A DNA stretch of 64,000 nucleotides from positions 82 to 64,081 of the forward strand of contig CAZDYI010000073.1 in the NCBI GenBank assembly GCA_964509765.1, read 5' to 3'. Shown piece by piece: positions 7,161-43,966 of the stretch. The stretch is from an uncultured Gammaproteobacteria bacterium (lineage in GTDB: Bacteria; Pseudomonadota; Gammaproteobacteria; Tethybacterales; Tethybacteraceae). A program made the position numbers and the translations under genes. The notes beneath the pieces are model-generated. The model was not told the DNA's origin and ran no database searches. It saw nothing but the letters and a program-made list of their open reading frames with translations. The stretch's first letter is position 1, and the number at the start of each line of letters is the position of its first letter.

Positions 7161-9920
7161 ATGGGCAGCAACGGCGACGCGCTCGCGAAGCAGTACGACC
7201 CCGCCGCGATCGAGCGCGGGATCTACGAGGGCTGGGAGTCCTCGGGGGCCTTCGACTCCACACCGCGCGAGGGCAGGAAGGGATACTGCATCCTGCTTCC
7301 GCCGCCGAACGTCACGGGATCGCTGCACATGGGCCACGCCTTCCAGCACGTGGTGATGGACGCGCTCGTCCGCCACCGGAGGATGTGCGGCGACGACGTG
7401 CTCTGGCAGCCGGGGACCGACCACGCCGGCGTCGGAACCCACATCGTGGTCTCCCGGGCGCTTCGCGGGCAGGGCCTGGACCCCGACGCGATGGGCCGCG
7501 AGGAGTTCCTCGAGCGGGTGCTCGAGTGGAAGGAGGGATCGGCGTCGACTATCGGCCGGCAGATGAGGCGCCTCGGCGACTCGTGCGACTGGAGCCGGGA
7601 GTGCTTCACCCTCGACCCCAAGCTCTCGGCGGTGGTCCGCGACGTGTTCGTCCGGCTCCACGATGACGGCCTGATCTACCGCGGCAAGCGGCTGGTCAAC
7701 TGGGACCCGAAGCTGCTCACCGCGCTTGCCGACCTCGAGGTCGCGGCCGAGGAGGAAAGCGGCGTGCTCTACCACGTGCGCTACCCGTTCGCCGACGGCG
7801 ACGGGACCGACGGGATGGTGATCGCCACCACCCGTCCCGAGACGATCCTCGTAGACGGCGCGCTCGCGGTGGCGCCGGGCGACCCGCGCCACGCGGCCCA
7901 GGTCGGGCGCTTCGTCCGGGTGCCGTGCACGGAGCGGACGATCGAGGTGATCGAGGACGAGCACGTCGACCCTGAGTTCGGCTCAGGCTGCGTGAAGATC
8001 ACCGCTGCGCACGACTTCAACGACTGGGAGGTTGCGATGCGCCACCCGGACAAGAACATCCCAATCATCGAGCTGATGACGCCCGAGGCGGTCCTCAACG
8101 ACAACGCGCCGGAGCGCTACCGGGGGCTCGACCGCTACGCGGCCCGCGAGCGGATCGTCGCCGACCTCGACGGGCAGGGCCTGCTGGTCAAGAAAGAGGA
8201 CCACACCTACATGCTCCCGCGCGGGATACGCTCCGGCGTGGTGGTCGAGCCGATGCTCAGCGACCAGTGGTTCGTCCGCACCGAGCCGCTTGCGAAGCTA
8301 GCCCTCAAGTCGGTCGAGGAGGGCAGGCTCACGTTCGTGCCGGGCAGCTGGCGGTCGGTCTACGAGAACTGGCTCTCCGGGATCAAGGACTGGTGCATCT
8401 CGCGGCAGATCGACTGGGGGCACCGGATCCCGGCCTGGGAGGACGCCGACGGCAACTGCTTCGTGGCCAAGGACGAGGGCGAGGCGAGGGCCAAGGCCGG
8501 CGACGGCCGCGATCTCCGGCAGGTCGACGACGTGCTCGACACCTGGTTCTCGTCGGCGCTGTGGCCTCTTTCGACGCTCGGCTGGCCCGACGGGGGCGAC
8601 GCGCACTTCAAGCGCTACTTCCCGACCTCGGCGCTCGTGACCGGCAACGACATCATCTTCTTCTGGGTCGCGCGGATGGTGATGATGTCGGAGTACCTCG
8701 TCGGCAAGGAGCCGTTCTCCGAGGTGTACATGCACGGCCTGGTGCGCGACCGCAACGGCGAGAAGATGAGCAAGTCGCGCGGCAACGTCCTCGACCCGAT
8801 CGACCTAATCGAGGGGATCGGCCTCGGCGAGCTGCTCGAGAAGCGGGTCACCCCCGACCTCGACGAAAAGCTCGCCGCCGAGATCGAGCGCAACACCCGC
8901 AAGGAGTTCCCCGACGGCATCCCGGCCTTCGGCGCCGACGCCCTGCGGCTTACCTTCGCCTCGCTCGCCGGCCACGGCCGCAACATCAACTTCGACCTGC
9001 GCCGCATCGACGGCCACAGGCGGCTGTGCACCAAGCTGTGGCAGGCCTCGCGCTTCGTGGTCTCGTCCTGCGAGGGCCCCCCCGCCGGGGGCGGCGAGCG
9101 CGGCTTCGCCGAGCGCTGGATCGTCTCGCGCCTGCAGCGCGCCGAGCGCGACGTCGCGGAGCGCTTCGCGGGCTACCGGCTGGACCTGGCGGTCGAGAAG
9201 CTCACCGCGCTCCTGCGCGACGAGTTCTGCGACTGGTACATAGAGGCGTCCAAGGAGCGCCTGGCCTCCGGCGGGGACGCGGCGGCGGGGGCGAAGGCGA
9301 CCCTTGCGGGCGTGCTCGCCGCGATCCTGCGCCTCGCCCACCCGATCGTCCCGTTCATAACCGCCGAGCTGTGGAAGTCAGTCGGCCCGCTGGCGGGCTT
9401 TGAGGGAGAGGACATCATCACCGCGCCGTACCCGGTTTGCGACGAATCGAAGATCGACTCCGCGGCGGAGGGGGACATGGAAAGGTTCGTCGGCCTGGTC
9501 CACGCTGGGCGCAGCCTGCGCGCTAGCCTCGGGATCGACCCGGGCAAGCGGATCCCGGCGCGGCTCGAGGACCCGGAGGGGACGCTCGACGGCTCGGTCG
9601 GGATGCTGCAGAGGCTCGCGCGGCTCGGCGAGGTGGAGTCCGGTGGGATAGGTCCCGACTCGGGCGAGCCGGTCGTCTCGGTCGACGGCATGCGCCTGCA
9701 GCTCCTGCTCGGCGAGGAGGGCGCCGGCTGGCAGGGGCGCCTCGACGGCGAGATCGCCAGGCTCGAGGAGAGCGTTGGAAGGATGCGCGCCAGGCTCGAC
9801 AACGAGTCCTTTGTCGCGAACGCCCCGGCCAAGGTCGTCGAGGAGGCGCGGGAGCGGTGCTCCAGGGAGCAGGGGCGGCTCGACGCCGCCAGGGATCTTG
9901 CCAGGGCCAACGCGCCCTAG
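7161..9920 (+). CDS. valS: Valine--tRNA ligase
   Basis: Class I motifs PPPNVTGSLHMGH and KMSKSRGN, plus a C-terminal coiled-coil. The ORF opens at GTG 7140; ATG 7161 (MGSNGDALAKQYDP) is preferred because TGGATAGAAT at 7141-7150 looks like a -10 box. Confidence 0.95.
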   Translation: MGSNGDALAKQYDPAAIERGIYEGWESSGAFDSTPREGRKGYCILLPPPNVTGSLHMGHAFQHVVMDALVRHRRMCGDDVLWQPGTDHAGVGTHIVVSRALRGQGLDPDAMGREEFLERVLEWKEGSASTIGRQMRRLGDSCDWSRECFTLDPKLSAVVRDVFVRLHDDGLIYRGKRLVNWDPKLLTALADLEVAAEEESGVLYHVRYPFADGDGTDGMVIATTRPETILVDGALAVAPGDPRHAAQVGRFVRVPCTERTIEVIEDEHVDPEFGSGCVKITAAHDFNDWEVAMRHPDKNIPIIELMTPEAVLNDNAPERYRGLDRYAARERIVADLDGQGLLVKKEDHTYMLPRGIRSGVVVEPMLSDQWFVRTEPLAKLALKSVEEGRLTFVPGSWRSVYENWLSGIKDWCISRQIDWGHRIPAWEDADGNCFVAKDEGEARAKAGDGRDLRQVDDVLDTWFSSALWPLSTLGWPDGGDAHFKRYFPTSALVTGNDIIFFWVARMVMMSEYLVGKEPFSEVYMHGLVRDRNGEKMSKSRGNVLDPIDLIEGIGLGELLEKRVTPDLDEKLAAEIERNTRKEFPDGIPAFGADALRLTFASLAGHGRNINFDLRRIDGHRRLCTKLWQASRFVVSSCEGPPAGGGERGFAERWIVSRLQRAERDVAERFAGYRLDLAVEKLTALLRDEFCDWYIEASKERLASGGDAAAGAKATLAGVLAAILRLAHPIVPFITAELWKSVGPLAGFEGEDIITAPYPVCDESKIDSAAEGDMERFVGLVHAGRSLRASLGIDPGKRIPARLEDPEGTLDGSVGMLQRLARLGEVESGGIGPDSGEPVVSVDGMRLQLLLGEEGAGWQGRLDGEIARLEESVGRMRARLDNESFVANAPAKVVEEARERCSREQGRLDAARDLARANAP

Positions 9921-10025
9921 GCCGGCGGTGCCGCTCGGAAACGCGCGCGCGATGGCGGTTGCGCTCGCCTCGCTTCCGTCGGTCGACCGGCGCTTCCGCC
10001 GGGAAGGCGGCGGGCGCTAGCGGCG

Positions 10026-13000
10026 GTGCTCGACGTCCGTCCTGGGGCGCGCGGCGAGCCGCGCAGGGTGGAGGGCCTGCCGGGCTGCGCCGAGGCGGTC
10101 GCGCTGTCGAGGCTCGGCAGGCGCCGCAGGGTGCTGGCGGTCATGGACGACCCGGCCGCGGCGCTGCGGATGGCGGACCAGCTCCGCAGCCTGACGGACC
10201 CTTCCCTGGTCCACCACCTCGTCGGCTGGGAGGTCCTGCCGTACGACGCGACCTCGCCGCCGAAGGCGATCGCAAGCGAGCGGATCGCGGTGCTCGCGCG
10301 CCTGCTTTCGGGCAGGCCCGGGGTGTATGTGACCGCGGCGGCGGACGCGCTGCTGCCGTGCATGCCGCCGGAGGTCCTGCGCGCGAAGGCGTTCCAGCTC
10401 GCGGTCGGTGACGTGCTCGACGTCGGAAGGCTCGCCGCCAGCCTGGCCGCCGCGGGATGCGCGTCCGTCGACCGGGTGCGCGCCGCAGGGGAGTTCGCCC
10501 ACTACGGCGGGCAGCTGGACATGTACCCCGGCGGGCAGCTGCGGCCGCTGCGGATCGTCATGGACGACGACCGCGTCGGCCAGATCCGCACCTTCGACCC
10601 TGCGACCCAGCTGAGCACCGGCAGGCAGGAGCGCATAGACGTGCTTCCGGCGCGGGAGTACCCGCTCGACGACGAGTCTGTGGTCGCGTTCCGGCAGAGG
10701 TGGCGGGAGCGCTTCGACGGCGACCTCGGCGACGACGTCTACCGCGCGGTGAGCCGCGGCGATGAGGCCGACGGCGCCGAGTTCTACCTGCCGCTGTTCC
10801 ACGGCGCGAGGGCGAGCGTGCTCGACTACCTAGGGCACAATGATGCGATCTGGCGGCATGCCGGACTCGCCGGCAGGATTGCGGACTTCACCGGCCTCGT
10901 CGAGGAGCGGCACCTCGGCGCGGTGCGCGCCGGGACCGCAGCGCTTGAGCCTGACGAGCTGTTTGTCTCGCCGGACGCGCTGTTCGCGGGCATGGACCGC
11001 CACGCGGTGGTCGAGGTGTGCGGGGACGGGGAAGATGGCGCCGAGGACGCGGGCGCGCGGGAGCTGCCGCCGCTCGGGGTGCGGCGCGATAGCGCCGCGC
11101 CGTACGGCCTGCTCAAGAAGTGGCTTGCGGGGCGCAGGGGGCGGGTGGTGTTCGCATGGTCGGGCAGGGCGCGCAAGGAGCGGGTGGCCGCTGCGCTCGA
11201 GGCCGCGGGGGCGAAGTACGAGGAGGCGGACGAGGTGGCCGGCCGCAGGCACGGGGTGTTCCTCCGCGAGGGCTCGCTGACCGGCGGATTCGACTGCCCG
11301 GCCTCGTCGCTCGCGGTGGTCACCGAGGCCGAGCTTCACGACTACGTCCCGTCGCCGCGCCTCGCGCGCTCTGCGGCCGTGGCCGCGTTCGAGCTCGACG
11401 ACCTCTCGCCGGGCGAGCTCGTGGTCCACCAGGACTACGGCATCGCGCGCTACCACGGGCTCACTGCGGTCGAGTCCGGCGAGGTCGAGGACGAGTTCAT
11501 CGACCTCGAGTTCGCCGGCGGCGTGCGGCTGTACGTCGCGGTCGCGCAGTGCCACCTGGTCTCGCGCCACCGCCGTCCCGAGCAAGGCGAGGAGGTCGAG
11601 CTCCACCGGCTCGGCTCGCGGCGCTGGAGGAGCATGCGCTCGAAGGCCGAGCAGGCCGCGCGCGACACCGCGGCGCACCTGCTCGAGCTCTACGCAACGC
11701 GCGAGGCGCTCGGGGCGCGGGAGAGGCTGCCGCTCGACGAGGAGGCCTACGCGGCCTTCCTCGCCGGCTTCGAGCACGGCGACACCGCCGACCAGATGCG
11801 CGCGAGCGCCGAGGTCGTCGCGGACCTGTGCTCGCCGCGGCCGATGGACCGGCTCGTCTGCGGCGAGGTCGGCTACGGCAAGACCGAGGTCGCCATGCGC
11901 GCGGCCTGGGTCTCCTGGCACCAGGGCGAGCAGGTCGCGGTCGTCGCGCCGACGACCGTGCTCTCCGACCAGCTCCACCGCAACTTCGTCGAGCGCTTCG
12001 CCGGGACCGGGGCCGAGGTGCTCGAGCTCTCGACCCTGCACAGCGCGGCCGACAGGAACAGGACGCTCGAGAGGCTCGCGACGGGACAGGCGATGATCGT
12101 CGTCGGTACCCACTCGCTGCTGTCCAAGGGCGTGCGGATCCCGAACCTCGGCCTCGTCGTGATCGACGAGGAGCACAGGTTCGGCGTGAGGCAGAAGGAG
12201 CGCATGCGCGAGATGCGCGCGAACGCCGACGTCCTGTCGATGAGCGCGACTCCGATCCCGCGCACGCTGTCGCTCGCGCTCGAGGGCCTGCGCGACATGT
12301 CGCTGATCGCGACCCCGCCGCCGGACCGCCTCGAGGTGCGGACGATGGTCTCCAAGGACCACGACTCGGTCGTCCGCGAGGCGCTCTCGCGCGAGCTCGC
12401 CCGCGGCGGCCAGGTCTTCTACGTCCACCACCGGGTGCAGACGATCAAGTCGGCCGAGGAGCGGATCAGGGACCTCGCGCCGTCGGCGAGGGTCGGCACC
12501 GCCCACGGGCAGCTGCCGCACGCCCAGCTGGAGTCTGTGATGCGCGGCTTCTACCGCGGCGAGGTCGACGTCCTGCTGTGCACCTCGATCGTCGAGAGCG
12601 GGATCGACGTGCCCAACGCGAACACTGTGATCGTCCCGCGCTCGGAGCACTTCGGGCTCGCCCAGCTCCACCAGCTGCGCGGGCGGGTCGGTCGCTCGGC
12701 CCGGCAGGGCTACGCCTACTTCCTGCTGCCGAGGGTCTCCGGCGATAACGGCAAGGGCAAGACCAGGGCCGAGAGCCGCCTGCAGACGATAGCCGAGTCG
12801 GCGCACATGGGCGGCGGCTACCACATCGCGACCCGCGACCTCGAGATACGCGGCGCCGGCGAGGTGCTCGGCGAGGCGCAAAGCGGGGTGATAACCGGCA
12901 TGGGCATGGAGGCCTTCCGGCGCATGCTCGCATCCGCGACGCGGAGCCTAAAGGGCGACACGGGAATCCCGGCGTCGGACTGCGAGGTCGACCTCGGCGG

Positions 13001-13415
13001 CCACGCGCGGCTGCCCGCCGACTACTGCGCGCGGGCAATCGAGCGGATGCGCTGCTACAGGACCCTTTCGGCGATGCACGAGGCCGAAGAGGTCGAGGGG
13101 TTCAGGGAGCACCTGGTCGACCGCTTCGGACCGCTTCCGTTCCAGGCGCGGCTCCTGATCGACTCTCACCTGCTGCGGATCAGGGCCAACGGGCTCGGGG
13201 TGTCGAGCATCAAGGCCAACTCGCACGGGCTGAAGCTCAGGTTCGAGGGTAGCCCCGACTTCGCCGACGCCCTGGTGGAAATGGCTAGGCGGCGCAAGGA
13301 CTTCAGCCTGGATCCCGACAACGGCATGCGGATCGCGGGCAAGGGCGACATGCAAGAGCTCCTCCATCGCGCGCGTCGCACCTGCGAGGAGATCGCTCAG
13401 GCCGTCAGGGCCTGA
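10026..13415 (+). CDS. mfd: Transcription-repair coupling factor
   Basis: 1129 aa. Helicase motifs GEVGYGKTEVAMRAA, VIDEEHRFGV and LHQLRGRVGRS. The N-terminal UvrB-like region aligns with Mfd. Confidence 0.95.
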   Translation: MLDVRPGARGEPRRVEGLPGCAEAVALSRLGRRRRVLAVMDDPAAALRMADQLRSLTDPSLVHHLVGWEVLPYDATSPPKAIASERIAVLARLLSGRPGVYVTAAADALLPCMPPEVLRAKAFQLAVGDVLDVGRLAASLAAAGCASVDRVRAAGEFAHYGGQLDMYPGGQLRPLRIVMDDDRVGQIRTFDPATQLSTGRQERIDVLPAREYPLDDESVVAFRQRWRERFDGDLGDDVYRAVSRGDEADGAEFYLPLFHGARASVLDYLGHNDAIWRHAGLAGRIADFTGLVEERHLGAVRAGTAALEPDELFVSPDALFAGMDRHAVVEVCGDGEDGAEDAGARELPPLGVRRDSAAPYGLLKKWLAGRRGRVVFAWSGRARKERVAAALEAAGAKYEEADEVAGRRHGVFLREGSLTGGFDCPASSLAVVTEAELHDYVPSPRLARSAAVAAFELDDLSPGELVVHQDYGIARYHGLTAVESGEVEDEFIDLEFAGGVRLYVAVAQCHLVSRHRRPEQGEEVELHRLGSRRWRSMRSKAEQAARDTAAHLLELYATREALGARERLPLDEEAYAAFLAGFEHGDTADQMRASAEVVADLCSPRPMDRLVCGEVGYGKTEVAMRAAWVSWHQGEQVAVVAPTTVLSDQLHRNFVERFAGTGAEVLELSTLHSAADRNRTLERLATGQAMIVVGTHSLLSKGVRIPNLGLVVIDEEHRFGVRQKERMREMRANADVLSMSATPIPRTLSLALEGLRDMSLIATPPPDRLEVRTMVSKDHDSVVREALSRELARGGQVFYVHHRVQTIKSAEERIRDLAPSARVGTAHGQLPHAQLESVMRGFYRGEVDVLLCTSIVESGIDVPNANTVIVPRSEHFGLAQLHQLRGRVGRSARQGYAYFLLPRVSGDNGKGKTRAESRLQTIAESAHMGGGYHIATRDLEIRGAGEVLGEAQSGVITGMGMEAFRRMLASATRSLKGDTGIPASDCEVDLGGHARLPADYCARAIERMRCYRTLSAMHEAEEVEGFREHLVDRFGPLPFQARLLIDSHLLRIRANGLGVSSIKANSHGLKLRFEGSPDFADALVEMARRRKDFSLDPDNGMRIAGKGDMQELLHRARRTCEEIAQAVRA

Positions 13416-13429
13416 TTCATGCAGGGGGG

Positions 13430-13459
13430 TTGACAAATGGTGTGGGAATGGTGTAGCAT
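13430..13459 (+). promoter_or_regulatory. Putative sigma70-type promoter (TTGACA-18 nt-TAGCAT) for the protease/mini-protein cassette
   Basis: TTGACA at 13430-13435 and TAGCAT at 13454-13459. The ATG at 13467 begins 7 nt after the -10 box, which suggests a leaderless or near-leaderless transcript. Confidence 0.45.
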
Positions 13460-13466
13460 GCGGTGT

Positions 13467-14282
13467 ATGGCAGACAAGAAAGAGCCGAAAAACAAGGCCG
13501 GCGCCGAGCAGGATGTGCTCGTCTTCGTCGGTCCCATGAGCCGTGAGCAAGTCCAGAAGGCGCTTGCCCTCGTCAAGGACTGCAAAGCAAGGTCGGCGGG
13601 CCTGCTGTTGGTCTTGGTCACCTTGGGTGGCAGTGCGGACGCTGCGTACAAGCTGGCGAGCACGCTCAGGAAGCTGTACGGGAAGATCACCGTCTTCGTG
13701 CCTCACATGTGCAAGAGCGCTGGCACCCTGGTCTGCCTGGCGGCAGACGAGCTTGTCATGAGCGTTGACGGTGAGCTCGGACCTCTTGACGTGCAGGTTG
13801 TCCAAGACGACAGGACAAAGATGCATTCAGGGTTGGATCAGAGTACCTCCTTTTCTGCCCTGATCTATCACACACGTGACGCCTTCAGCCACTATTTCAG
13901 GTACTGTGTGACGAAGCTAGGCTTGAGCAAGAAATCAGCTTCAGAAATTGCGTCAGATCTGGCTGGTATGACGATGGCTCCGATTTATTCCCAGATCGAC
14001 CCGCGCGTTGTCGGAGAGATAATCAGGGCAATGGAAGTATCCTACAGGTACGGAAACTTGCTTCGCACAATAAATGTGCAACCATGGACAATAAAAACAT
14101 TGGTGGATGCTTTCCCGTCGCATGGTTTTGTCATTGACAGCAAAACAGCTTCAGGACTGTTCAAGAAGCTCCGTGAGCCTGGCGAAATCGAACAACAGCA
14201 GGTGCCGGCAACAGACCTTCTCGAGGTCTTGAAAAACCAGAGAAGTATAATTACATTCAAGCAACAGGAGGCAACCAAATGA
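13467..14282 (+). CDS. Clp-fold serine proteinase, SDH/S49-like family
   Basis: LLVLVTLGGSADAAYK and HMCKSAGTLVCLAADELVMS resemble the ClpP/SppA GG and nucleophile-Ser blocks. Size is about 271 aa from MADKKEPKNK. The track ORF starts at 13437. Confidence 0.7.
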   Translation: MADKKEPKNKAGAEQDVLVFVGPMSREQVQKALALVKDCKARSAGLLLVLVTLGGSADAAYKLASTLRKLYGKITVFVPHMCKSAGTLVCLAADELVMSVDGELGPLDVQVVQDDRTKMHSGLDQSTSFSALIYHTRDAFSHYFRYCVTKLGLSKKSASEIASDLAGMTMAPIYSQIDPRVVGEIIRAMEVSYRYGNLLRTINVQPWTIKTLVDAFPSHGFVIDSKTASGLFKKLREPGEIEQQQVPATDLLEVLKNQRSIITFKQQEATK

Positions 14283-14461
14283 GCAAGAAGTTTGAGTTCT
14301 TCAAAACAAGAAAGGAACTCCTGGAGGAGTTGCAGGAGCACAGGCGGCTATTCCAAGAGGATCTGGACCGCCAGTTGGGGCGCATCCCGGAAGACTTCGT
14401 CGACGACGGAGCAGAGCCGGGCAGGAAGATCCCGCACAATCCCTTCACTGGAGGGAAGTGA
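14279..14461 (+). CDS. Mini-protein A (60 aa), paralogue family T-R-x-E-[LF]..E[LV][HQ]..RR.....[LM][DN]R.LGR
   Basis: Its ATG overlaps the protease stop (ATGA). Strong AGGAGG Shine-Dalgarno 7 nt upstream. The core FFKTRKELLEELQEHRRLFQEDLDRQLGRIPEDF is shared with B-D. Confidence 0.6.
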   Translation: MSKKFEFFKTRKELLEELQEHRRLFQEDLDRQLGRIPEDFVDDGAEPGRKIPHNPFTGGK

Positions 14462-14561
14462 TCGCCAGACGCCTCCTCAGGCGCCTGGTGCGAACCGCTG
14501 TTGCCCCCGTAGCTGGCATCTCAAGCTGGAGTCGGGAAAGGGCTTGAAGCAGGCGGACAAC

Positions 14562-14783
14562 ATGAAGAAGGTTGAAATGCACGACAGGAAGATCCCTTTC
14601 TTGTACCAAACCAGGGAAGAGTTCTGGGCGGAGTTGCACAAGAACAGAAGGCAATACCGGAAAGAGATGGACCGCTTGCTGGGACGCAGGCCAGGCGAGC
14701 CTCTTCTGTACAGGTACATGTTGGGCAGGAAGCGCCCAGAGGGACCTGTTGACTCTGGCGATCAACAGCCAGACGAGTCCTGA
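14562..14783 (+). CDS. Mini-protein B (73 aa), same paralogue family
   Basis: MKKVEMHDRKIPFLYQTREEFWAELHKNRRQYRKEMDRLLGRRPGEP... This is an internal ATG of the 163-aa track ORF, chosen because the shared core starts just after it. Confidence 0.55.
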   Translation: MKKVEMHDRKIPFLYQTREEFWAELHKNRRQYRKEMDRLLGRRPGEPLLYRYMLGRKRPEGPVDSGDQQPDES

Positions 14784-14993
14784 GTGACCAGGTCCAAGGG
14801 GTCGGTCAGCTTGAAACTGACATTACCTGAGACCAGCGAAGGGTTTGCTGAGTACCTGCAGGAATGCAGGAGGCTCAACGATGAGGACCTTGAGCGCGTG
14901 CTGGGTAAAAGGCCCGGCGAGAGCTGGTACAGGAGGGAGATCAAACAACTCGCAGAGGACAAGCGTGCGAGCGAAGAAAAAAAGGACAGGTGA
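14784..14993 (+). CDS. Mini-protein C (69 aa), same paralogue family
   Basis: GTG directly abuts the TGA of B in the same frame. Core TLPETSEGFAEYLQECRRLNDEDLERVLGKRPGES. Confidence 0.5.
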   Translation: MTRSKGSVSLKLTLPETSEGFAEYLQECRRLNDEDLERVLGKRPGESWYRREIKQLAEDKRASEEKKDR

Positions 14994-15059
14994 CGGCAGC
15001 CGGCCGGCGCCGCTCTTGCGATTCATGTGCTGTGGCGTGGCTGCTGAGGATGAGCAGGT

Positions 15060-15233
15060 ATGAACAACAAAATTAGAAAGGTCGTCTACCAGACCAGGGA
15101 AGAGTTCTGGGCTGAGGTGCATGAGCACAGGAGGCGGCACAGGGCAGAGATGAACCGCTTGCTAGGGCGCAAGTTGGGCGGAGCTCTTGCCCGCTACAGG
15201 GCTCGCAGGAACAGGACGGGGAACATCATCTGA
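15060..15233 (+). CDS. Mini-protein D (57 aa), same paralogue family
   Basis: Not in the ORF track (below 60 aa). Hand translation: MNNKIRKVVYQTREEFWAEVHEHRRRHRAEMNRLLGRKLGGALARYRARRNRTGNII. GAGGA lies 9 nt upstream. Confidence 0.55.
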   Translation: MNNKIRKVVYQTREEFWAEVHEHRRRHRAEMNRLLGRKLGGALARYRARRNRTGNII

Positions 15234-15426
15234 TCTTGGCAAGAGATGACCAAGCACACCTTGAGCAGCAAGTGGAGCGTGCTGGCTTGGATAATTTCGG
15301 AACTGTTCGAGTCAGAACGTCCTCTTTCAACAGATGAGGCAAGCCGGATTTTGACATCAACTTAGCGGAGGAGTTGACATCAGGCCGTGCTAGAACTACT
15401 TTCCTACCAAGCGAGGCAGAGCAGAA

Positions 15427-15609
15427 ATGGTAAAGCCATTTTCAAGAAACAATGAGCGGATAGATCAGTCGCACATACGGCGGCTGAGGAAGCTCTACAG
15501 TGGAGTCGGAGGGCGGGCGCCCAAGCCGATTCCCAGCGATGAGGAGCGCCGCGCCTGCAAGGAAGTGATCAGCCGGTATTACTCCGGACTGCGCAAGGCA
15601 GGGCTGTGA
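15427..15609 (+). CDS. Hypothetical small basic protein (60 aa)
   Basis: Last ORF of the lower-G+C cassette: MVKPFSRNNERIDQSHIRRLRKLYSG... No family recognised and only a weak RBS. Confidence 0.35.
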   Translation: MVKPFSRNNERIDQSHIRRLRKLYSGVGGRAPKPIPSDEERRACKEVISRYYSGLRKAGL

Positions 15610-15693
15610 TCGCTGCCCTCCGCTGAGCTCTGGTTCAGGAAACACCCTGAATCAGCGTGTCTCAGCCTTTGATGCAGGCAGGCTCTTGCGGAT

Positions 15694-17079
15694 TCAAATT
15701 TGTTGCGGGCCTAGGACAGCATCCGCTGCCGCCCGAACCTTTTCGACGTGGTCGCCATGGCAGAACACAGAGTCCCTGATCAGGTGGTCGGACACTTTCG
15801 TCCCGCGGTCCTTCAGGTCCATCAGCTCGAGAAGCTTCAGGGTGTTGTGTGATTCATCCTCGACCAGCATGTTCTTGGCCTCTTTGTTGTCCGTTGCCGG
15901 CGCCAGGTCCACCGCCACAAGGTGGCGGGGCACCTTCGCTTTTTCTGCGATTTGGTCCCGAAGCTTTTCGGTGTCAGAACCGTCGACATCTCCGGCCGCT
16001 CCCTTGTTCCGATCAAACCGCGCCGCAACCTTGAACAGCCTGCGGTTCCGCATGTCGCTGAATATCGACGCCGCGCTGTCGCTGCCGCGAACCGCTCCGG
16101 GCACAAGCGCCATCTCGTCGTCCAGCGCCAGGAAGCTTGCGGGAGACGTGATCTCGTTCCCGTTGATAGTCGCTCCGTCCTCAACGGCGCGCCCGAATGC
16201 GTTGATGCACATCACCTTGCAGGCCCGTGACACGTCGTGGTGGTAGACGACGGTGTTCATGTGGAGCTTGTGGTTTACGAGCTGCGCCAGGGCCGCGATC
16301 GCCCGCCTGCCGCCGACCAGCCTCATCTCGCCGTCCACGTCCCTTACCTTCATCAGGCGGTAGATCCTCCCGGCGTCGACGTGTATCGGTATCCCGCAGT
16401 GCATCCCGTCGCGGCTGAGGTAGTCCAGCTTGTCCGCGTCGAACGGGCCGTGAACGATCTCCCCCAGGTACTTCATGTCGCTAGGCAGCCTTCCTTGGAT
16501 GGCCCGGGCGATGAAGTCGCAGCCAAGCTCGGATCCGTTCAACGACCCGTCCTTGAAATGTCCGTTCACCTCATCGATGAACTTGCGGAACGCCTCGCTG
16601 CGGACGATCTCCGCCGACAGGTCCTCGGCGCTCGTCCCTCTCGGCTCCATGTTCCTGAAGAAGAACTCGGAGTTGTGCGAGAACGGGCCGTGGCCGGCGT
16701 CGTGGCAGATCGCGGCCATCCGCAGGTTCAGCCTCTGCCCGTCCGTCACCCGCACCTCGCCGGGCTTGTTCAGGCCGTTGCACATCAGCTCGACGAGGAG
16801 CACGACTCCCATCGTGTGCTCAAAGCGCGTGTGCACTGCGCCGGGGAAGACGAGGTGCGCGCCGCCGAGCTGCCTGATCCGCCGCAGCCGCTGCAAAAGC
16901 GGCGAGTTGATCAGCGCGATCTCGTGCGGGTAGACCTCGATGGTTCCCCAGACCGAGTCGTGCAGGTACCTTGTCTTGGCGCGGCCCTTGGGTAGCCCGG
17001 CGGGCAGGAGCTCCCGCAGCAGGCCGTTGATCTCCCGCCCGAGGCCCGCCCGCCCGGCGGGCGCGCCGGCCTCAGCCAC
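15694..17079 (-). CDS. HD-domain phosphohydrolase, SAMHD1/EF1143-like dNTP triphosphohydrolase family
   Basis: RFEHTMGV, ICHDAGHGPFSH and ADKLDYLSRD blocks. 461 aa. Its start overlaps the upstream gene by 8 nt. Confidence 0.8.
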   Translation of the reverse strand: MAEAGAPAGRAGLGREINGLLRELLPAGLPKGRAKTRYLHDSVWGTIEVYPHEIALINSPLLQRLRRIRQLGGAHLVFPGAVHTRFEHTMGVVLLVELMCNGLNKPGEVRVTDGQRLNLRMAAICHDAGHGPFSHNSEFFFRNMEPRGTSAEDLSAEIVRSEAFRKFIDEVNGHFKDGSLNGSELGCDFIARAIQGRLPSDMKYLGEIVHGPFDADKLDYLSRDGMHCGIPIHVDAGRIYRLMKVRDVDGEMRLVGGRRAIAALAQLVNHKLHMNTVVYHHDVSRACKVMCINAFGRAVEDGATINGNEITSPASFLALDDEMALVPGAVRGSDSAASIFSDMRNRRLFKVAARFDRNKGAAGDVDGSDTEKLRDQIAEKAKVPRHLVAVDLAPATDNKEAKNMLVEDESHNTLKLLELMDLKDRGTKVSDHLIRDSVFCHGDHVEKVRAAADAVLGPQQI

Positions 17080-17971
17080 CGACGGGCTTGGTCAGTCCGC
17101 TGTCGAGCCGCGCGATCAGGTGCAGCCTGTCCGTCCAGTCGTAGAGCGTGTCCGCGTCCACCAGGTCGTGCCTTGCGGCCACGACCTTGGTCCTGCCGAC
17201 CGTCCCCGCGACCAGCCCCTCGCCGAGCGGCTCGATACCGTGCTGCGGCAGGCCGCGGCTCTCGAGCGCCTCCTTGATCACGAGCATCATCCCGTCGCTC
17301 TCGACGATGAACACCGCAGCCTCGACGTCGGCCGTCTTGGCCAGCGCGATGGTCAGGGCCGCGTTGTCGTTGATCCCGCGGTCGGAGTGGACCTCTGAGC
17401 TGCCGTAGTCGCTCAGGCGGGAGGAGACGAACCCGATCAGCCTGCCTGCCGCCTCGCCGCTGGAGAACAGCGCGGCGGTTATCGTCCGGCGCGGGGAAAC
17501 GGCGAGCCGCGGCAGCTGCCCGATGACCGGCATGAAGGCGGGCTTGTGCACCGTCAGCGGGATCGACCTGGTCTTGACGCAGCGCATTCCCTTGGGCAGG
17601 ACCGTCCCGGAGGGCTTGGCCTCGATCGCGAAGTCGGTCAGCTCGCCCTTGAGGCTGTCGAGCTCGCCCTCGTCGTACTCGAGGATGCCGCAGCCAGACG
17701 AGAACACAACGCCGTGTCCCTTGCGCGACGGGACGTGCAGCAGCCCCTCGCCGGCCAGCCGGCGGTTGACGTGGTCTACGGCGGCGTCGGCGAACAGGTC
17801 GCTCAGCCCGATCCTGATCACCTCGACGCTCGACACGCCGGCCTCGTTGAGCATGACGATCTCGTCGTTGCCGATGATCCGGCCGCGCGCGATCACGCCG
17901 CCCGGGACCTTCACCTCCCTCGCGAGCAGCGTCCCCTTCGCCATGTTCGGCGTGCAGCGGTCCTCTTTCAT
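17072..17971 (-). CDS. Conserved protein, tentatively MoeA-like/molybdopterin-binding-domain protein
   Basis: About 299 aa from MKEDRCT. The C-terminal half (AALTIALAKTADVEAAVFIVESDGMM...) resembles MogA/MoeA-type binding domains. The functional call is weak. Confidence 0.4.
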   Translation of the reverse strand: MKEDRCTPNMAKGTLLAREVKVPGGVIARGRIIGNDEIVMLNEAGVSSVEVIRIGLSDLFADAAVDHVNRRLAGEGLLHVPSRKGHGVVFSSGCGILEYDEGELDSLKGELTDFAIEAKPSGTVLPKGMRCVKTRSIPLTVHKPAFMPVIGQLPRLAVSPRRTITAALFSSGEAAGRLIGFVSSRLSDYGSSEVHSDRGINDNAALTIALAKTADVEAAVFIVESDGMMLVIKEALESRGLPQHGIEPLGEGLVAGTVGRTKVVAARHDLVDADTLYDWTDRLHLIARLDSGLTKPVGG

Positions 17972-17996
17972 GCCTGTCCGTCCCCCTTTGCCGTGT

Positions 17997-18926
17997 TCAT
18001 TCGCAGGTCCCCTCGCGGATCTCGAGGTCCGGGAGGGAGAACCCCACCCCCTCATTATCCAACTCCAGCCTCGCGATCCCGGCAAACGAGTAGCTCAGGT
18101 CGCCGCCGCGGACCGCCGGGCACTCGTCCGCCTCAAGTCCGGCAAAGGCCAGGTGGCCGAGCGACTCGGCCTCGCCCGCCGCCTCGGCTCGGGCTACGAC
18201 CATCTCGGTGAGCAGCGGGCGCAGCTGTGCGCCGTCCGCCTCGATCCGCTCGAACAGCGAGCCCGCGCGCTCGTTGACCGTCCGCTCGACTAGGTCGGCG
18301 AGGTGGTCGCCCTCGCCGAAGCTTCCGCGCCAGGCGGCCCTGGTCTCGGCGTCGAGCTCGAAGGACACCGAGCGCCTCTCGATGCGAACGCTCCAGTCCT
18401 CGCCCAGCCCGACGGCCCCGAACGACGCCGTCACTCGCGCGCGGAACGGCATGCGGGCGCCGGTGTCCGGCTGCTCCTCGTCGGCCGCGTACTCGCGCCG
18501 CTCGCGGACGTAGAACTCGCCCGCCATCCCGGCGCCGGCCTCGATCCGCGGGCCGTCGCCCGAGAGGCTCCCCGAGCCGGCCTCGAAGGCGAGCCTGCCG
18601 AGCATCGACGCGACCGACGGGCTGTCGGTCTCGCCGACGAGCATGCTGAACTCGCGCTCGGGCAAGATCGCGTCGAAGTCGTCTGCGGCCACGCGCAGGG
18701 TTGCCTCGGTCGACACCGACAGGTCCATCGGGTGGAGCTGGAAGCCGACGCTCACCCACACCGGCGCGGTGCCGCCGACCTGCCGCGGCAGCGGGACCAG
18801 GATGCGGTCCTCGAACTCGTGGCGCTTGGTGATGAGCCAGGCCGCGACGGCGACGGCAAGCGCCAGAAGCACCAGCAGCGCGACCAGAGCCGACGCGACC
18901 CATCCCAGGAGCCCGCGCGCGCTCAC
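17997..18926 (-). CDS. Membrane-anchored hypothetical protein (309 aa)
   Basis: N-terminal TM helix LLGWVASALVALLVLLALAVAVAAWLI. Its GTG overlaps the dxs stop (GTGA). No family recognised. Confidence 0.65.
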   Translation of the reverse strand: MSARGLLGWVASALVALLVLLALAVAVAAWLITKRHEFEDRILVPLPRQVGGTAPVWVSVGFQLHPMDLSVSTEATLRVAADDFDAILPEREFSMLVGETDSPSVASMLGRLAFEAGSGSLSGDGPRIEAGAGMAGEFYVRERREYAADEEQPDTGARMPFRARVTASFGAVGLGEDWSVRIERRSVSFELDAETRAAWRGSFGEGDHLADLVERTVNERAGSLFERIEADGAQLRPLLTEMVVARAEAAGEAESLGHLAFAGLEADECPAVRGGDLSYSFAGIARLELDNEGVGFSLPDLEIREGTCE

Positions 18927-20788
18927 TTGTTTTCCTTCCTCGCCTTCCTCGCCTTGCCGCCGGAGCCGAGGAACTCCCGGACGGACCGCCCGATCCCTGC
19001 GGCGTCCAGGCCGGCCTCGGCGAGCAGCTCGGCCGGCGAGCCGTGCTCGATGAAGCGGTCGGGCAGGCCGAGCACCCTGACCCGCGGCGCCTTGGGCCTT
19101 GCGGCGAGCATCGCGGCCACCGCGCTGCCGGCGCCGCCCTCGCGGACGTTCTCCTCGACGGTGACCACGTGGCTGTGCTCCTTTGCGATCCTGTCGACCG
19201 TCCCCCCGTCGATCGGCTTGGCGAAGCGCATGTCCGCCACGGTCGCGTCGAGCTCTTCAGCGACTTTGAGCGCGGGGGCGGCCGTCGGCCCGAAGGCGAG
19301 GATCGCGAGCTTGCCGCTGCCCTCGCGGAGGATCCTTGCCTTGCCGACCTCGACCGTTCCGTCCCGGTCCTCCGGAAGCGCCGCGCCCGGCCCGGACCCG
19401 CGCGGGTAGCGCACCGCGGCGGGCGAGCCGAGCGAAAGCGCGGTGTTGAGCATGAGCCAGCACTCGGCCTCGTCCGAGGGCACCATCACCGTCATGTTCG
19501 GCACGCAGCGCAGGTAGGTCAGGTCGAATGCGCCGTGGTGGGTCGCGCCGTCTGCGCCGACGAGGCCCGCCCGGTCGATCGCGAAGACGACCGGCAGGTC
19601 CTGGATCGCGACGTCGTGGATCAGCTGGTCGTAGCCGCGCTGCAGGAAGGTCGAGTAGATCGCGAGCACCGGCCGCAGCCCGGCGCAGGCGAGGCCGGCG
19701 CTGAAGGTCACCGCGTGCTGCTCGGCGATCCCGCAGTCGAAGTAGCGGTCGGGGAAGCGGCGCTCGAAGCCGACGAGGCCGGAGCCCTCGCGCATCGCCG
19801 GCGTGATCGCCCGGACCCGGTCGTCGCGCTCAGCGGCGTGCTCGATCCAGTCGCCGAACACCTTCGAGTAGGTCGGCCCCTTCGGCCCGGCGGTCTCCAC
19901 CTTCTGCGGCGCCGCCTGGGCGGACACGCCGTGGTGCTTGACCGGGTCGTCCTCGGCTGGGGCGTAGCCCTTGCCCTTGACTGTCGCGACGTGCAGGATG
20001 CGCGGCCCGCGCCGGTTGCGGAGCTTTGAGAGCATCGGCACGAGCGCGTCGAGGTCGTGGCCGTCGACCGGGCCGTAGTACTTGAAGCCGAGCTCCTCGA
20101 AGATCGTCCCCGGCATCACCATCCCGCGCAGGTGCTCCTCGGCCTTCGAGGCGAACTCGCGCAGGGTCGGCGGCATGACCATCGCCGAGCCCGAGCGGAC
20201 CGTGTCGTAGACCGTCGACGCGAGGACCCGCGCGAGGTTCTGCCGCAGCGCGCCGACCGCGGGCGAGATCGACATGTCGTTGTCGTTGAGGACGACCAGC
20301 AGGTCGAGGCCCTCCATCGCGCCGGCGTTGTTGAGGGCCTCGAACGCCATCCCGCCGGACATCGCGCCGTCGCCGACCACCGCGACGGCCTTGTCTCCCG
20401 CGGCCGCGTAGCCCGTCGCCGCCGAGACCGCGGTCGAGGCGTGCGCGGTTCCGAAGGCGTCGTACTCGCTCTCGGCGCGGACCGGGAAGCCCGAGATCCC
20501 GCCCTTGCGGCGCACCGTCTCGAGCCGCTCGCGCCTGCCGGTGAGCACCTTGTGCGCGTACGCCTGGTGGCCGACGTCCCAGACGATCTTGTCGCGCGGC
20601 GGCTCGAAGACGTGGAGCAGAGCGACTGTGAGCTCGATCGAGCCGAGGTTGCTCGAGAGGTGGCCGCCGACCCGCGAGACGGTCTCGTGGACGAACGAGC
20701 GCAGCTCGCCGGCGAGCTGCTTGAGCCCGTCCTGCCGCAGGGCCCTGACGTCGGCGGGCGTGGAGGTTCGCTCGAGCAGTTCGTACAT
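18923..20788 (-). CDS. dxs: 1-deoxy-D-xylulose-5-phosphate synthase
   Basis: Starts MYELLERTSTPADVRAL. GHQAYAHKVLTGRR and the ThDP motif GDGAMSGGMAFEALNNAG are present. ATG verified at 20786-20788. Confidence 0.95.
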   Translation of the reverse strand: MYELLERTSTPADVRALRQDGLKQLAGELRSFVHETVSRVGGHLSSNLGSIELTVALLHVFEPPRDKIVWDVGHQAYAHKVLTGRRERLETVRRKGGISGFPVRAESEYDAFGTAHASTAVSAATGYAAAGDKAVAVVGDGAMSGGMAFEALNNAGAMEGLDLLVVLNDNDMSISPAVGALRQNLARVLASTVYDTVRSGSAMVMPPTLREFASKAEEHLRGMVMPGTIFEELGFKYYGPVDGHDLDALVPMLSKLRNRRGPRILHVATVKGKGYAPAEDDPVKHHGVSAQAAPQKVETAGPKGPTYSKVFGDWIEHAAERDDRVRAITPAMREGSGLVGFERRFPDRYFDCGIAEQHAVTFSAGLACAGLRPVLAIYSTFLQRGYDQLIHDVAIQDLPVVFAIDRAGLVGADGATHHGAFDLTYLRCVPNMTVMVPSDEAECWLMLNTALSLGSPAAVRYPRGSGPGAALPEDRDGTVEVGKARILREGSGKLAILAFGPTAAPALKVAEELDATVADMRFAKPIDGGTVDRIAKEHSHVVTVEENVREGGAGSAVAAMLAARPKAPRVRVLGLPDRFIEHGSPAELLAEAGLDAAGIGRSVREFLGSGGKARKARKENK

Positions 20789-20826
20789 CTTGCCGCCCGG
20801 ACCCCTCGGGCGGCGGCGGGAAGGGG

Positions 20827-20899
20827 TGGAGCCAAGGGGAGTCGAACCCCTCACCTTCTGGTTGCAAACCAGACGCTCTACCAGATGAGCTATGGCCCC
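20827..20899 (-). tRNA. tRNA-Ala (anticodon UGC)
   Basis: Minus strand GGGGCCATAGCTCATCTGGTAGAGCGTCTGGTTTGCAACCAGAAGGTGAGGGGTTCGACTCCCCTTGGCTCCA folds as a cloverleaf. It has the G3:U70 Ala identity pair, anticodon loop TTTGCAA and TPsiC GGTTCGA. CCA is not encoded. Confidence 0.9.
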
Positions 20900-43614: not shown

Positions 43615-43966
43615 AAATGCGAGCCAGCCGATAAGCCGGATTCTGTCGAGGGACGGCCATCCATCTGGGACCGGCGTCGCCGCCGGCCTCTCGCGGCCCA
43701 CCCGGGACGGCGCGGGCAGCGCCTATGTCCCTGCTTGGCCTTGCTCCGGACGGGGTTTGCCATGCCGGCCGCGTTGCCGCGACCGCGGTGCGCTCTTACC
43801 GCACCCTTTCAGCCTTGCCTGTGCGCATGCGCCATCGGCGGTCTGCTCTCTGTTGCACTGATCCGTCACCTTGCGATGCCCGGGAGTTACCCGGCGTCCT
43901 GCCCTGTGGAGTCCGGACTTTCCTCCCCGGCGCAAAGGCCGGGGCGGCCGCCTGGCTGACTCGCAG
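43615..43966 (-). ncRNA. rnpB: RNase P RNA (bacterial type A)
   Basis: The minus strand contains GGGGAGGAAAGTCCGGACTCCACAGGGCA, CAGTGCAACAGAGAGCAGACCGCCGATGGC, GGGTGCGGTAAGAGCGCACC and ACAGAATCCGGCTTATCGGCTGGCTC. P1 pairs GCGAGTCAGCC with GGCTGGCTCGC. The ends are good to about +/-5 nt. Confidence 0.9.

Follow-up and report, generated by a model that had tools for sequence, protein, structure and literature searches.

The window analysed here is a stretch of 64,000 nucleotides from contig CAZDYI010000073.1 of an uncultured gammaproteobacterium (Tethybacteraceae), whose DNA has a G+C content of ~72%. Between the stop codon of mfd and that of a convergent gene for an HD-domain phosphohydrolase lies a 2.3-kb block of lower G+C with all of its genes on the plus strand: an open reading frame (ORF) for a ClpP-fold serine protease, four paralogous mini-ORFs (A to D) and an unrelated small ORF, E (all coordinates are collected in Table 1). 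The original prediction, made by a model from the letters alone, had placed a drop in composition directly after the mfd stop at 13415. We could reproduce this drop, with a G+C of 0.70-0.76 in the flanks and of 0.48-0.62 across 13400-15800. G+C at third codon positions (GC3) stands at 0.94 for mfd, 0.91 for the next core gene and 0.85 for the HD gene, against 0.65 for the protease gene and 0.67-0.78 for the small ORFs. By both measures, the protease gene and the mini-genes form a single compositional block.

That the block has been inserted follows from two distant relatives (L087 and L093, with HD proteins 48-51% identical), in which mfd and the HD gene converge directly with nothing between them. 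Here and below, L-numbers denote fetched homologous or relative loci and P-numbers denote proteins returned by homology searches. In a third relative, L091, the same junction (7359-10140) is occupied by two N6_N4_Mtase genes with HNH, Mrr_cat or NA-iREase1 domains. Because methyltransferase, HNH and Mrr-type genes sit there, the junction is an accumulation site for accessory genes and, it seems, a hotspot for such genes or for defence genes. Neither flanking gene belongs to the module. The host core gene mfd shares 97% amino-acid identity with its orthologue in L001 (a strain variant of the locus, see below), with a synonymous divergence (dS) of 0.117 and a ratio of non-synonymous to synonymous divergence (omega) of 0.12. 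The HD gene was considered as a component and rejected in favour of a boundary, because it sits in a conserved block (dxs, two ORFs of ~300 aa and HD; syntenic in L087, L091, L092 and L093) that also exists without the cassette. An apparent pairing of protease and HD genes at P0003/P0131 was likewise rejected; there is no HD gene within 8 kb of that protease.

The original prediction of a Clp/S49-fold protease with an intact candidate nucleophile was borne out. The protein, counted as 271 aa from MADKK (other in-frame ATGs lie upstream at 13458 and 13437), scores 46.9 bits against Pfam PF01972 (SDH_protease), above the gathering cut-off of 31.3, over residues 56-124 only (profile positions 94-162 of 286). 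The match to PHROG 21683, a family of unknown function, is nearly full-length (E = 1.6e-52). The score against the NCBIfam equivalog NF047768 ('SDH family Clp fold serine proteinase') is 60 bits vs a cut-off of 250; the protease is a relative of this family and not an equivalog member. Pfam NfeD1b_N gives 34.6 bits, under its 40-bit cut-off, and head-maturation proteases are matched weakly (NF045542, E = 1.4e-5; phrog_53, E = 3e-9). In an AlphaFold2 (AF2) model with a predicted local distance difference test (pLDDT) score of 87.2, residues 17-124 form an alpha/beta core like that of ClpP, and residues 125-260 a C-terminal domain of helices. In the PDB, Foldseek matched this model to SppA (4kwb and 3rst), ClpP and the NfeD-type 1510-N protease with a probability of 1.0 and template modelling (TM) scores of up to 0.67 on the target, the best match being Bacillus subtilis SppA. 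Among the viral models in BFVD, the best were giant-virus 'serine dehydrogenase proteinase' entries (E = 1e-8).

Across 29 homologues, K86-S87-A-G-T (274-aa numbering; S87 is the candidate nucleophile, within CKSAGT), E106 and D111 (both in GELGPLDVQ) and H222 (in PSHGF) are invariant, and conservation points to putative catalytic roles for S87, K86, H222, E106 and D111. Compared with the L001 allele, the protease has an omega of 0.31 (p = 2e-9). The best explanation of the gene product is a cytoplasmic, ClpP/SppA-fold protease of the SDH type, encoded in a block without an ATPase partner.

The cassette is probably transcribed from a sigma-70-like promoter, TTGACA-18-TAGCAT, which had been read from the letters and was recovered by our pattern search. 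It is the best of three promoter-like sites in the region, with 0.7 expected by chance, and L001 keeps the -10 hexamer TAGCAT, with TTGCAA as its -35. Because the TAGCAT of the window ends 7 nt before ATG 13467, the predicted transcription start falls at or just before that ATG and a leaderless mRNA is plausible. We found no convincing terminator candidate after the array, and Rfam matched no RNA family in the block.

At the other end of the protease gene, the stop overlaps the ATG of A in the ATGA at 14279-14282, again as originally described. In every variant of the locus the first mini-gene overlaps the protease stop, either through ATGA with A (window and L084) or by 11 nt with C' (L001 and L085). 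A link between the protease and its proposed partners is made plausible by this arrangement; i.e. whichever type of mini-gene comes first, it overlaps the stop of both protease alleles. The overlapping stop and start, present in both gene orders, is a genetic coupling only. Purine-rich motifs resembling Shine-Dalgarno sequences lie upstream of the starts in the window and in L001.

The four mini-ORFs had been given lengths of 60, 73, 69 and 57 aa. These stand for A, B and D. For C, a start at TTG 14811 (MKLTLPETSEG, with AAGGGG 9 nt upstream) is more likely than one at GTG 14784, because the resulting 60-aa product is collinear with the ATG-initiated C' of L001. All four proteins align over a core of ~35 residues, T-R-E-E-F...H-R-R...E-M-D-R-L-L-G-R-x-P-G, in which T, RR, R, L and G are invariant. 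That one core is common to all four, first claimed from an alignment by eye, was upheld by local-alignment z-scores against 2000 shuffles, which ranged from 5.1 to 21.8 over the six pairs (A-B 12.1, A-C 7.8, A-D 11.2, B-C 7.3, B-D 21.8 and C-D 5.1). A repeat search recovers the DNA repeat at 14295, 14599 and 15082, and the spacing of 304 and 483 (= 222 + 261) bp agrees with the core-to-core distances of 304, 222 and 261 bp reported before. Between paralogues, the proportion of synonymous differences is saturated (pS 0.47-0.85) vs 0.30-0.56 for non-synonymous differences (pN), with the amino-acid core kept. These values match the earlier proposal of an old tandem amplification maintained as separate genes.

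Comparison of orthologues between the window and L001 gave an omega of 0.23 for C (p = 7e-4), 0.40 for D and 0.54 for B. In each called frame of the block, G+C by codon position follows the order GC3 > GC1 > GC2. The mini-ORFs are intact in L001, L084 and L085; at these homologous loci the small ORFs are kept without disruption, and no prophage head module is present. An open frame also runs upstream of B, through all of A (window 14283-14780; 166 codons from stop to stop), and does likewise in L001, L084 and L085. Its translation is Ser/Arg-rich, resembles an off-frame product and is probably meaningless. A longer isoform of B (106 aa, GTG start) was called in L001.

The description of the tails that follow the core as unrelated and highly charged holds in part. 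The tails fall into types (A; B/D; C; and F, a type absent from the window array), of which the B/D type has a RYRA-R motif common to B and D, and each type is conserved between strains. This includes the A and C tails, the latter being ~79% identical between strains vs ~61% for the C core (by eye). In the AF2 model of B, residues 18-39 form one helix (pLDDT 82-87), and the tail after it is disordered. Each mini-protein is predicted to be one amphipathic helix with a disordered, type-specific tail.

The core belongs to no named family, as the original prediction had supposed. Against 5.8 billion clustered proteins it returned only members from the locus and its variants. An exhaustive HMMER profile search of 1.84 billion representatives returned the same members plus three further matches, which we took to be spurious; each consists of 5-13 separate stretches, and the one inspected (P0253) is a repeat protein. 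No mini-proteins were found in IMG/VR or the JGI metagenomes, and there was no family match among PDB sequences, Pfam, NCBIfam, PHROGs or PADLOC. An origin of the mini-proteins from the protease or its C-terminal tail was also rejected, the two being unrelated (hhalign probability 0.7%).

Public assemblies supplied three variants of the locus beyond the window (L001, L084 and L085), while two further contigs (L082 and L083) are identical to the window array. All variants lie between mfd and the HD gene, with flanks 92-95% identical to those of the window. The gene order is Prot(w)-A-B-C-D-E in the window, Prot(w)-A-B'-E'-F' with an identical Prot(w) in L084, and Prot(v2)-C'-D'-A-B'-E'-F in L001 and L085. 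Mini-genes therefore differ in both number (3-5 copies per variant) and order; F adds a fifth type of paralogue, whose tail is basic. In a blastn comparison of the window with L001, identity breaks at 13798, inside the protease gene: the first 110 aa of the two alleles are 80% identical (dS 0.43), the C-terminal 164 aa only 44% (dS saturated). In L001 and L085, the diverged C-terminal segment of the protease travels with the adjacent C'-D' pair, and the two together make up one hypervariable segment. The C-D pair of the window, 72% identical to C'-D' at the DNA level, is placed after B instead. A is present in all four variants and its window and L001 copies are 97% identical, with a dS of 0.03 that is below that of the flanks (0.12-0.16).

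B' (L001 6444-6659) is a chimera. Over the first 60 nt it is 97-100% identical to window B (14562-14783), whilst nt 120-165 are 83-89% identical to D' of L001 (5872-6078) vs 63-74% to window B. A B-type 5' end joined to a D'-type middle suggests gene conversion among members of the array through the conserved core. Taken as a whole, the sequence comparisons point with high confidence to a real, horizontally acquired, modular accessory operon, with mini-genes that are expressed as proteins under purifying selection.

ORF E, which also falls within the interval of the original prediction, is not a paralogue of the mini-genes (z about 0 against each of A to D) and has no match in the family libraries; by these comparisons it represents another family of small proteins for which no relatives are known. 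All variants of the array retain it (L001 6689-6868, L084 4119-4295 and L085 5264-5438), with an omega of 0.57 between the window and L001. The window form is 42-44% identical to the other three. In L085, E is split by a frameshift, and this copy may be a pseudogene or reflect an assembly error.

Table 1. Features of the cassette, its boundaries in the window, and homologues of the protease on mobile elements (for the latter, positions are those of the respective locus).
Feature	Position	Strand	Evidence or remark
Accessory cassette, inserted	13416-15693		G+C, GC3; mfd and HD gene directly convergent in L087 and L093
Sigma-70-like promoter, TTGACA-18-TAGCAT	13430-13459	+	Pattern match, 10/12 consensus positions
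SDH-type ClpP/SppA-fold serine protease, 271 aa	13467-14282	+	PF01972, PHROG 21683, AF2, Foldseek
Codon of candidate nucleophile Ser (S87)	13716-13718	+	Invariant in 29 homologues
Protease C-terminal helical domain region, replaced by a diverged allele in L001 and L085	13799-14275	+	blastn break, dS, AF2
Mini-protein A, 60 aa	14279-14461	+	AGGAGG 8 nt upstream; predicted translational coupling to the protease by ATGA; in all four locus variants
Mini-protein B, 73 aa	14562-14783	+	ORF, core alignment, AF2
Mini-protein C, 60 aa from TTG 14811 (alternative GTG 14784, 69 aa)	14811-14993	+	Collinearity with C' of L001
Mini-protein D, 57 aa	15060-15233	+	Nearest paralogue of B (B-D z = 21.8)
Small ORF E, 60 aa, family distinct from A-D	15427-15609	+	tblastn: found in L001, L084 and L085
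mfd, left boundary, host core gene outside the module	10026-13415	+	Pfam TRCF architecture, recorded on the L001 orthologue
HD + HD_assoc_2 phosphohydrolase gene, right boundary, outside the module	15694-17079	-	Pfam; conserved dxs block
L088, Klebsiella phage ST13-OXA48phi12.4	3793-4990		Protease homologue adjoins XRE/ImmA immunity region
L089, Burkholderia P2-like phage vB_HM387	3791-4861		Protease homologue after integrase
L090, small Methylovorus plasmid pMsip02	4953-5918		Protease homologue between zot-domain gene and integrase

Relatives of the protease are common. A scan of species-representative genomes found at least 523 in many phyla, and from these 523 or more genomic matches we fetched 80 loci for neighbourhood work. 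A survey of the neighbourhoods of SDH/PF01972-type proteases for further downstream arrays, as proposed in the original prediction, found none in the 80 loci. A hidden Markov model built from nine mini-proteins found no mini-gene in six-frame translations of the surroundings of 80 distant homologues, inspection of downstream small ORFs by eye gave nothing consistent, and all-against-all clustering of the neighbours in the 80 loci revealed no conserved partner beyond lineage-specific synteny. Among the homologues examined, the mini-gene array is restricted to the clade of the window protease. The immediate neighbours are insertion sequence (IS) transposases (about 14/116), helix-turn-helix regulators, a few defence genes (e.g. 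DrmB, SspH, mad8 and SoFic) and housekeeping genes. The homologues on phages and a plasmid (Table 1) are 35-42% identical to the protease and lie at accessory positions; plasmid pMsip02 also has a gene annotated as a major capsid protein, and the Klebsiella phage has a 71-aa ORF that overlaps the start of its protease gene. The literature on PF01972/SDH proteases held almost nothing relevant, and we found no substrate or function in it; mentions of SppA in an anti-CRISPR paper proved to be plasmid names and not the protease.

Most homologues carry a low-complexity C-terminal tail of 20-100 aa that is missing from the 271-274-aa protease of the window. Speculatively, such a tail might be supplied in trans by the mini-proteins. 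P0003 and P0014 are also without the tail, and no small genes are called downstream of the protease at the P0003 locus. Close to P0003, the third-closest homologue, which lies next to rpsL-rpsG, there is a run of five unannotated genes (L086 10586-15524); one encodes a 654-aa protein with a faint HATPase_c_3 match, and the run could be another accessory island. Elsewhere, in five loci from Acidobacteriota-type metagenome-assembled genomes, Planctomycetota and Albidovulum (L015, L029, L067, L051 and L058), a conserved basic ORF of 80-112 aa lies on the same strand ~320-390 nt upstream of the protease match. It has the motif KNPAAVALGRLGGLKGGKARAEKLS..R.EIA.KAA.ARW, plus A-L-G-R, and no Pfam family. 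Its product could be another kind of small partner for this protease family.

Some observations concern the flanks. On the minus strand, 15694-20854 holds dxs, two unannotated ORFs of ~300 aa and the HD/HD_assoc_2 gene, as in several relatives. The ~300-aa proteins of this block have no Pfam match on record, and none was found when the 337-aa ORF of the window (17072-18085) was checked. The HD protein matches PHROG 35128 (E = 4e-23) and, weakly, dGTPase models (in PADLOC-DB v2, E = 2.3e-5 over 85 residues only). Rfam matches in the window are limited to a tRNA gene (20827-20899) and a bacterial class A RNase P RNA (43616-43963), both on the minus strand.

Our favoured explanation, held tentatively, is that the mini-proteins dock on the protease via the shared helix as substrates, inhibitors or adaptors. 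The N-terminal amphipathic helix common to all of them would bind the protease oligomer, and each docked mini-protein would present its type-specific, disordered and charged C-terminal tail. That tail might be cleaved (as a substrate or pro-peptide), block the active site (as an inhibitor) or recruit other proteins (as an adaptor), and the array would thereby determine how active or how specific the protease is. Strains would come to differ in their tails through recombination in the conserved core and swaps of whole blocks. The genes, their paralogy and purifying selection, the coupling to the protease, the insertion and the modular variation between strains are shown here; docking, cleavage or inhibition, and any role in the cell, are inferred. 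The mini-proteins look like dedicated partners of the protease because the two co-occur exclusively, because the coupling is kept across rearrangements, and because a helix with a disordered tail is predicted to be unable to fold alone.

By analogy, precedents among ClpP-fold proteases would favour a role as partners. In the NfeD/STOPP-stomatin operons (Pyrococcus PH1510-PH1511), a ClpP-fold protease is encoded beside its dedicated substrate. The 1510-N protease is among our structural matches and NfeD1b_N is a weak match in sequence, but the NfeD/STOPP and stomatin proteins are anchored in the membrane, and the substrate there has an SPFH domain. The NfeD-type 1510-N protease has been described as stomatin-specific (PDB 6m4b). 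In the B. subtilis sppA-sppI (yteJ) operon, the partner encoded downstream binds a ClpP-fold Ser protease and inhibits it by means of SppI's C-terminal domain (PMC7568657), and, going by the title of PDB entry 4kwb, SppA binds C-termini in its own active sites. Unlike the cassette, that operon encodes membrane proteins and a single partner; the mini-proteins are unrelated to it in sequence and inhibition here is hypothesised. The SDH-type proteinases themselves (PF01972, NF047768 and PHROG 21683) resemble the window protease in the CKSAGT Ser, GELGPLDVQ, PSHGF and the ClpP/SppA alpha/beta core, and differ from it in the distance to NF047768, the low-complexity tail and the mini-gene array.

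Several points weigh against a partner role. More than 500 homologues of the protease are mostly without mini-genes and, in the 80 loci, without a shared neighbour, and thus the protease needs no such partners. A is 97% identical between strains in which the protease C-terminal domains are only 44% identical, a constancy that makes tight co-evolution between A and this domain less likely. Because the mini-protein family is known from only four locus variants of one lineage, it offers little comparative power. Lastly, we infer the co-transcription and translation of the cassette genes from sequence features.

The mini-genes might instead encode independent small proteins with host or invader targets of their own (e.g. 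regulators that bind nucleic acids or factors, or anti-defence-like proteins) that share the operon with the protease but do not involve proteolysis in their function. This is possible, if unlikely. Members of the protease family are normally found on their own, A hardly varies between strains that differ in the exchanged C-terminal domain of the protease, and strain-variable arrays of small genes are typical of accessory or anti-defence operons; the invariant R22, R23 and R31 (A numbering) and the Arg-rich tails of D and F would also suit binding to nucleic acids or acidic surfaces. Independence sits poorly with the overlap between the first mini-gene and the protease stop, which is kept in two gene orders, and with the protein, IMG/VR and JGI searches, where no mini-gene was found without the protease. 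The predicted single helix and disordered tail would, moreover, be unable to form a stable domain alone. We consider it improbable that the cassette serves anti-phage defence or abortive infection. The protease would then be the effector and the mini-proteins would act like antitoxins, as inhibitors, sensors or decoys, with proteolysis set free once infection removes or titrates them. The methyltransferase, HNH and Mrr-type genes at the junction in L091, the high polymorphism of the cassette between strains with flanks 93-95% identical, the accessory positions of the homologues on the two phages and the plasmid, and the IS transposases and scattered defence genes beside distant homologues are all in keeping with such a role. 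Yet many homologues lie among housekeeping genes, and the association with defence is anecdotal and without statistical enrichment. The label 'defence- or toxin-like' in the original prediction gained no direct support: no protein of the block has a significant match in PADLOC (the best is A vs PDC-S26, E = 0.019, and the protease has none in PADLOC-DB v2), no toxin or nuclease domain is present, and no block ORF matches a toxin family in Pfam, NCBIfam or PADLOC, as one would in a type II toxin-antitoxin module.

Arrays of precursors for ribosomally synthesised and post-translationally modified peptides (RiPPs) such as prochlorosin ProcA, or those with Nif11/NHLP leaders, likewise comprise tandem short paralogues with a conserved N-terminal and a variable C-terminal part, beside a protease. 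The shared helix could then be a leader, from which the protease would release type-specific C-terminal peptides, and the conserved L-L-G-R-x-P-G boundary between core and tail would fit. We find this very doubtful, as the mfd-HD block encodes neither a modifying enzyme (maturase) nor a leader-recognition element nor an exporter, and the sequences show no signal peptides; the tails are long and charged, contain few Cys, Ser or Thr residues and, instead of being hypervariable, are conserved within each type. The protease is of another class, and to our knowledge no RiPP leader peptidase has a ClpP fold. Two further explanations are effectively excluded. Phage scaffold proteins are small, helical and charged, and serve as natural substrates of proteases that share the superfold (lambda gpC/Nu3), so that the cassette might be the remnant of a prophage head-maturation module with an S49/ClpP-like prohead protease; the weak head-maturation matches of the protease are in line with this. 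However, mfd and the HD gene directly flank the block, which has no capsid, portal, terminase or integrase gene and no other phage structural match, relatives L087 and L093 are without the block, and the protease belongs to a different subfamily, with a far stronger match to PHROG 21683, the phage members of which lie outside head modules. That the small ORFs are not genes at all, and the repeat a DNA or RNA element or a set of chance ORFs, is scarcely more credible: high-G+C DNA yields many spurious ORFs and the evidence for translation is indirect, but synonymous sites are saturated with the amino-acid core kept and omega below 1, the GC3 pattern is coding-like, the frames are intact in four variants, and Rfam has no match in the region.

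Returning to the mini-proteins as docked partners of the protease, a bolder form of that explanation, to which we give little probability, would see in them a swappable library of trans-acting tails. A common docking helix would deliver various disordered tails that gate or retarget a self-compartmentalised ClpP-fold protease, and recombination in the sequence for this helix would reshuffle the library from one strain to another under conflict-driven selection, e.g. against phage. If true, an ATP-independent protease would here be programmed in a new way, and the uncharacterised SDH protease family would gain its first functional handle.

Apart from three minor corrections (the start of C, the relatedness of the tails and the presence of E), every structural statement of the original prediction was reproduced, and its interpretation is supported in part. 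The theme of a protease with an operon partner is known; the new part is the mini-protein family without known relatives. This family is lineage-restricted, under selection, tandem-expanded and reshuffled between near-identical genomes, and gene callers and family databases overlook small-gene content of such a kind. Proteases of the SDH type with a ClpP fold occur widely, with relatives across phyla, in phage genomes and, by structural match, in giant viruses, and only at the locus described here did we find one with a genetic coupling to candidate partners. The locus thus supplies concrete candidate substrates or regulators that can be cloned. Although the mini-protein family is confined to one uncultured lineage, the main value of the locus lies in providing a handle on an uncharacterised protease family and an example of small-gene diversification driven by recombination.

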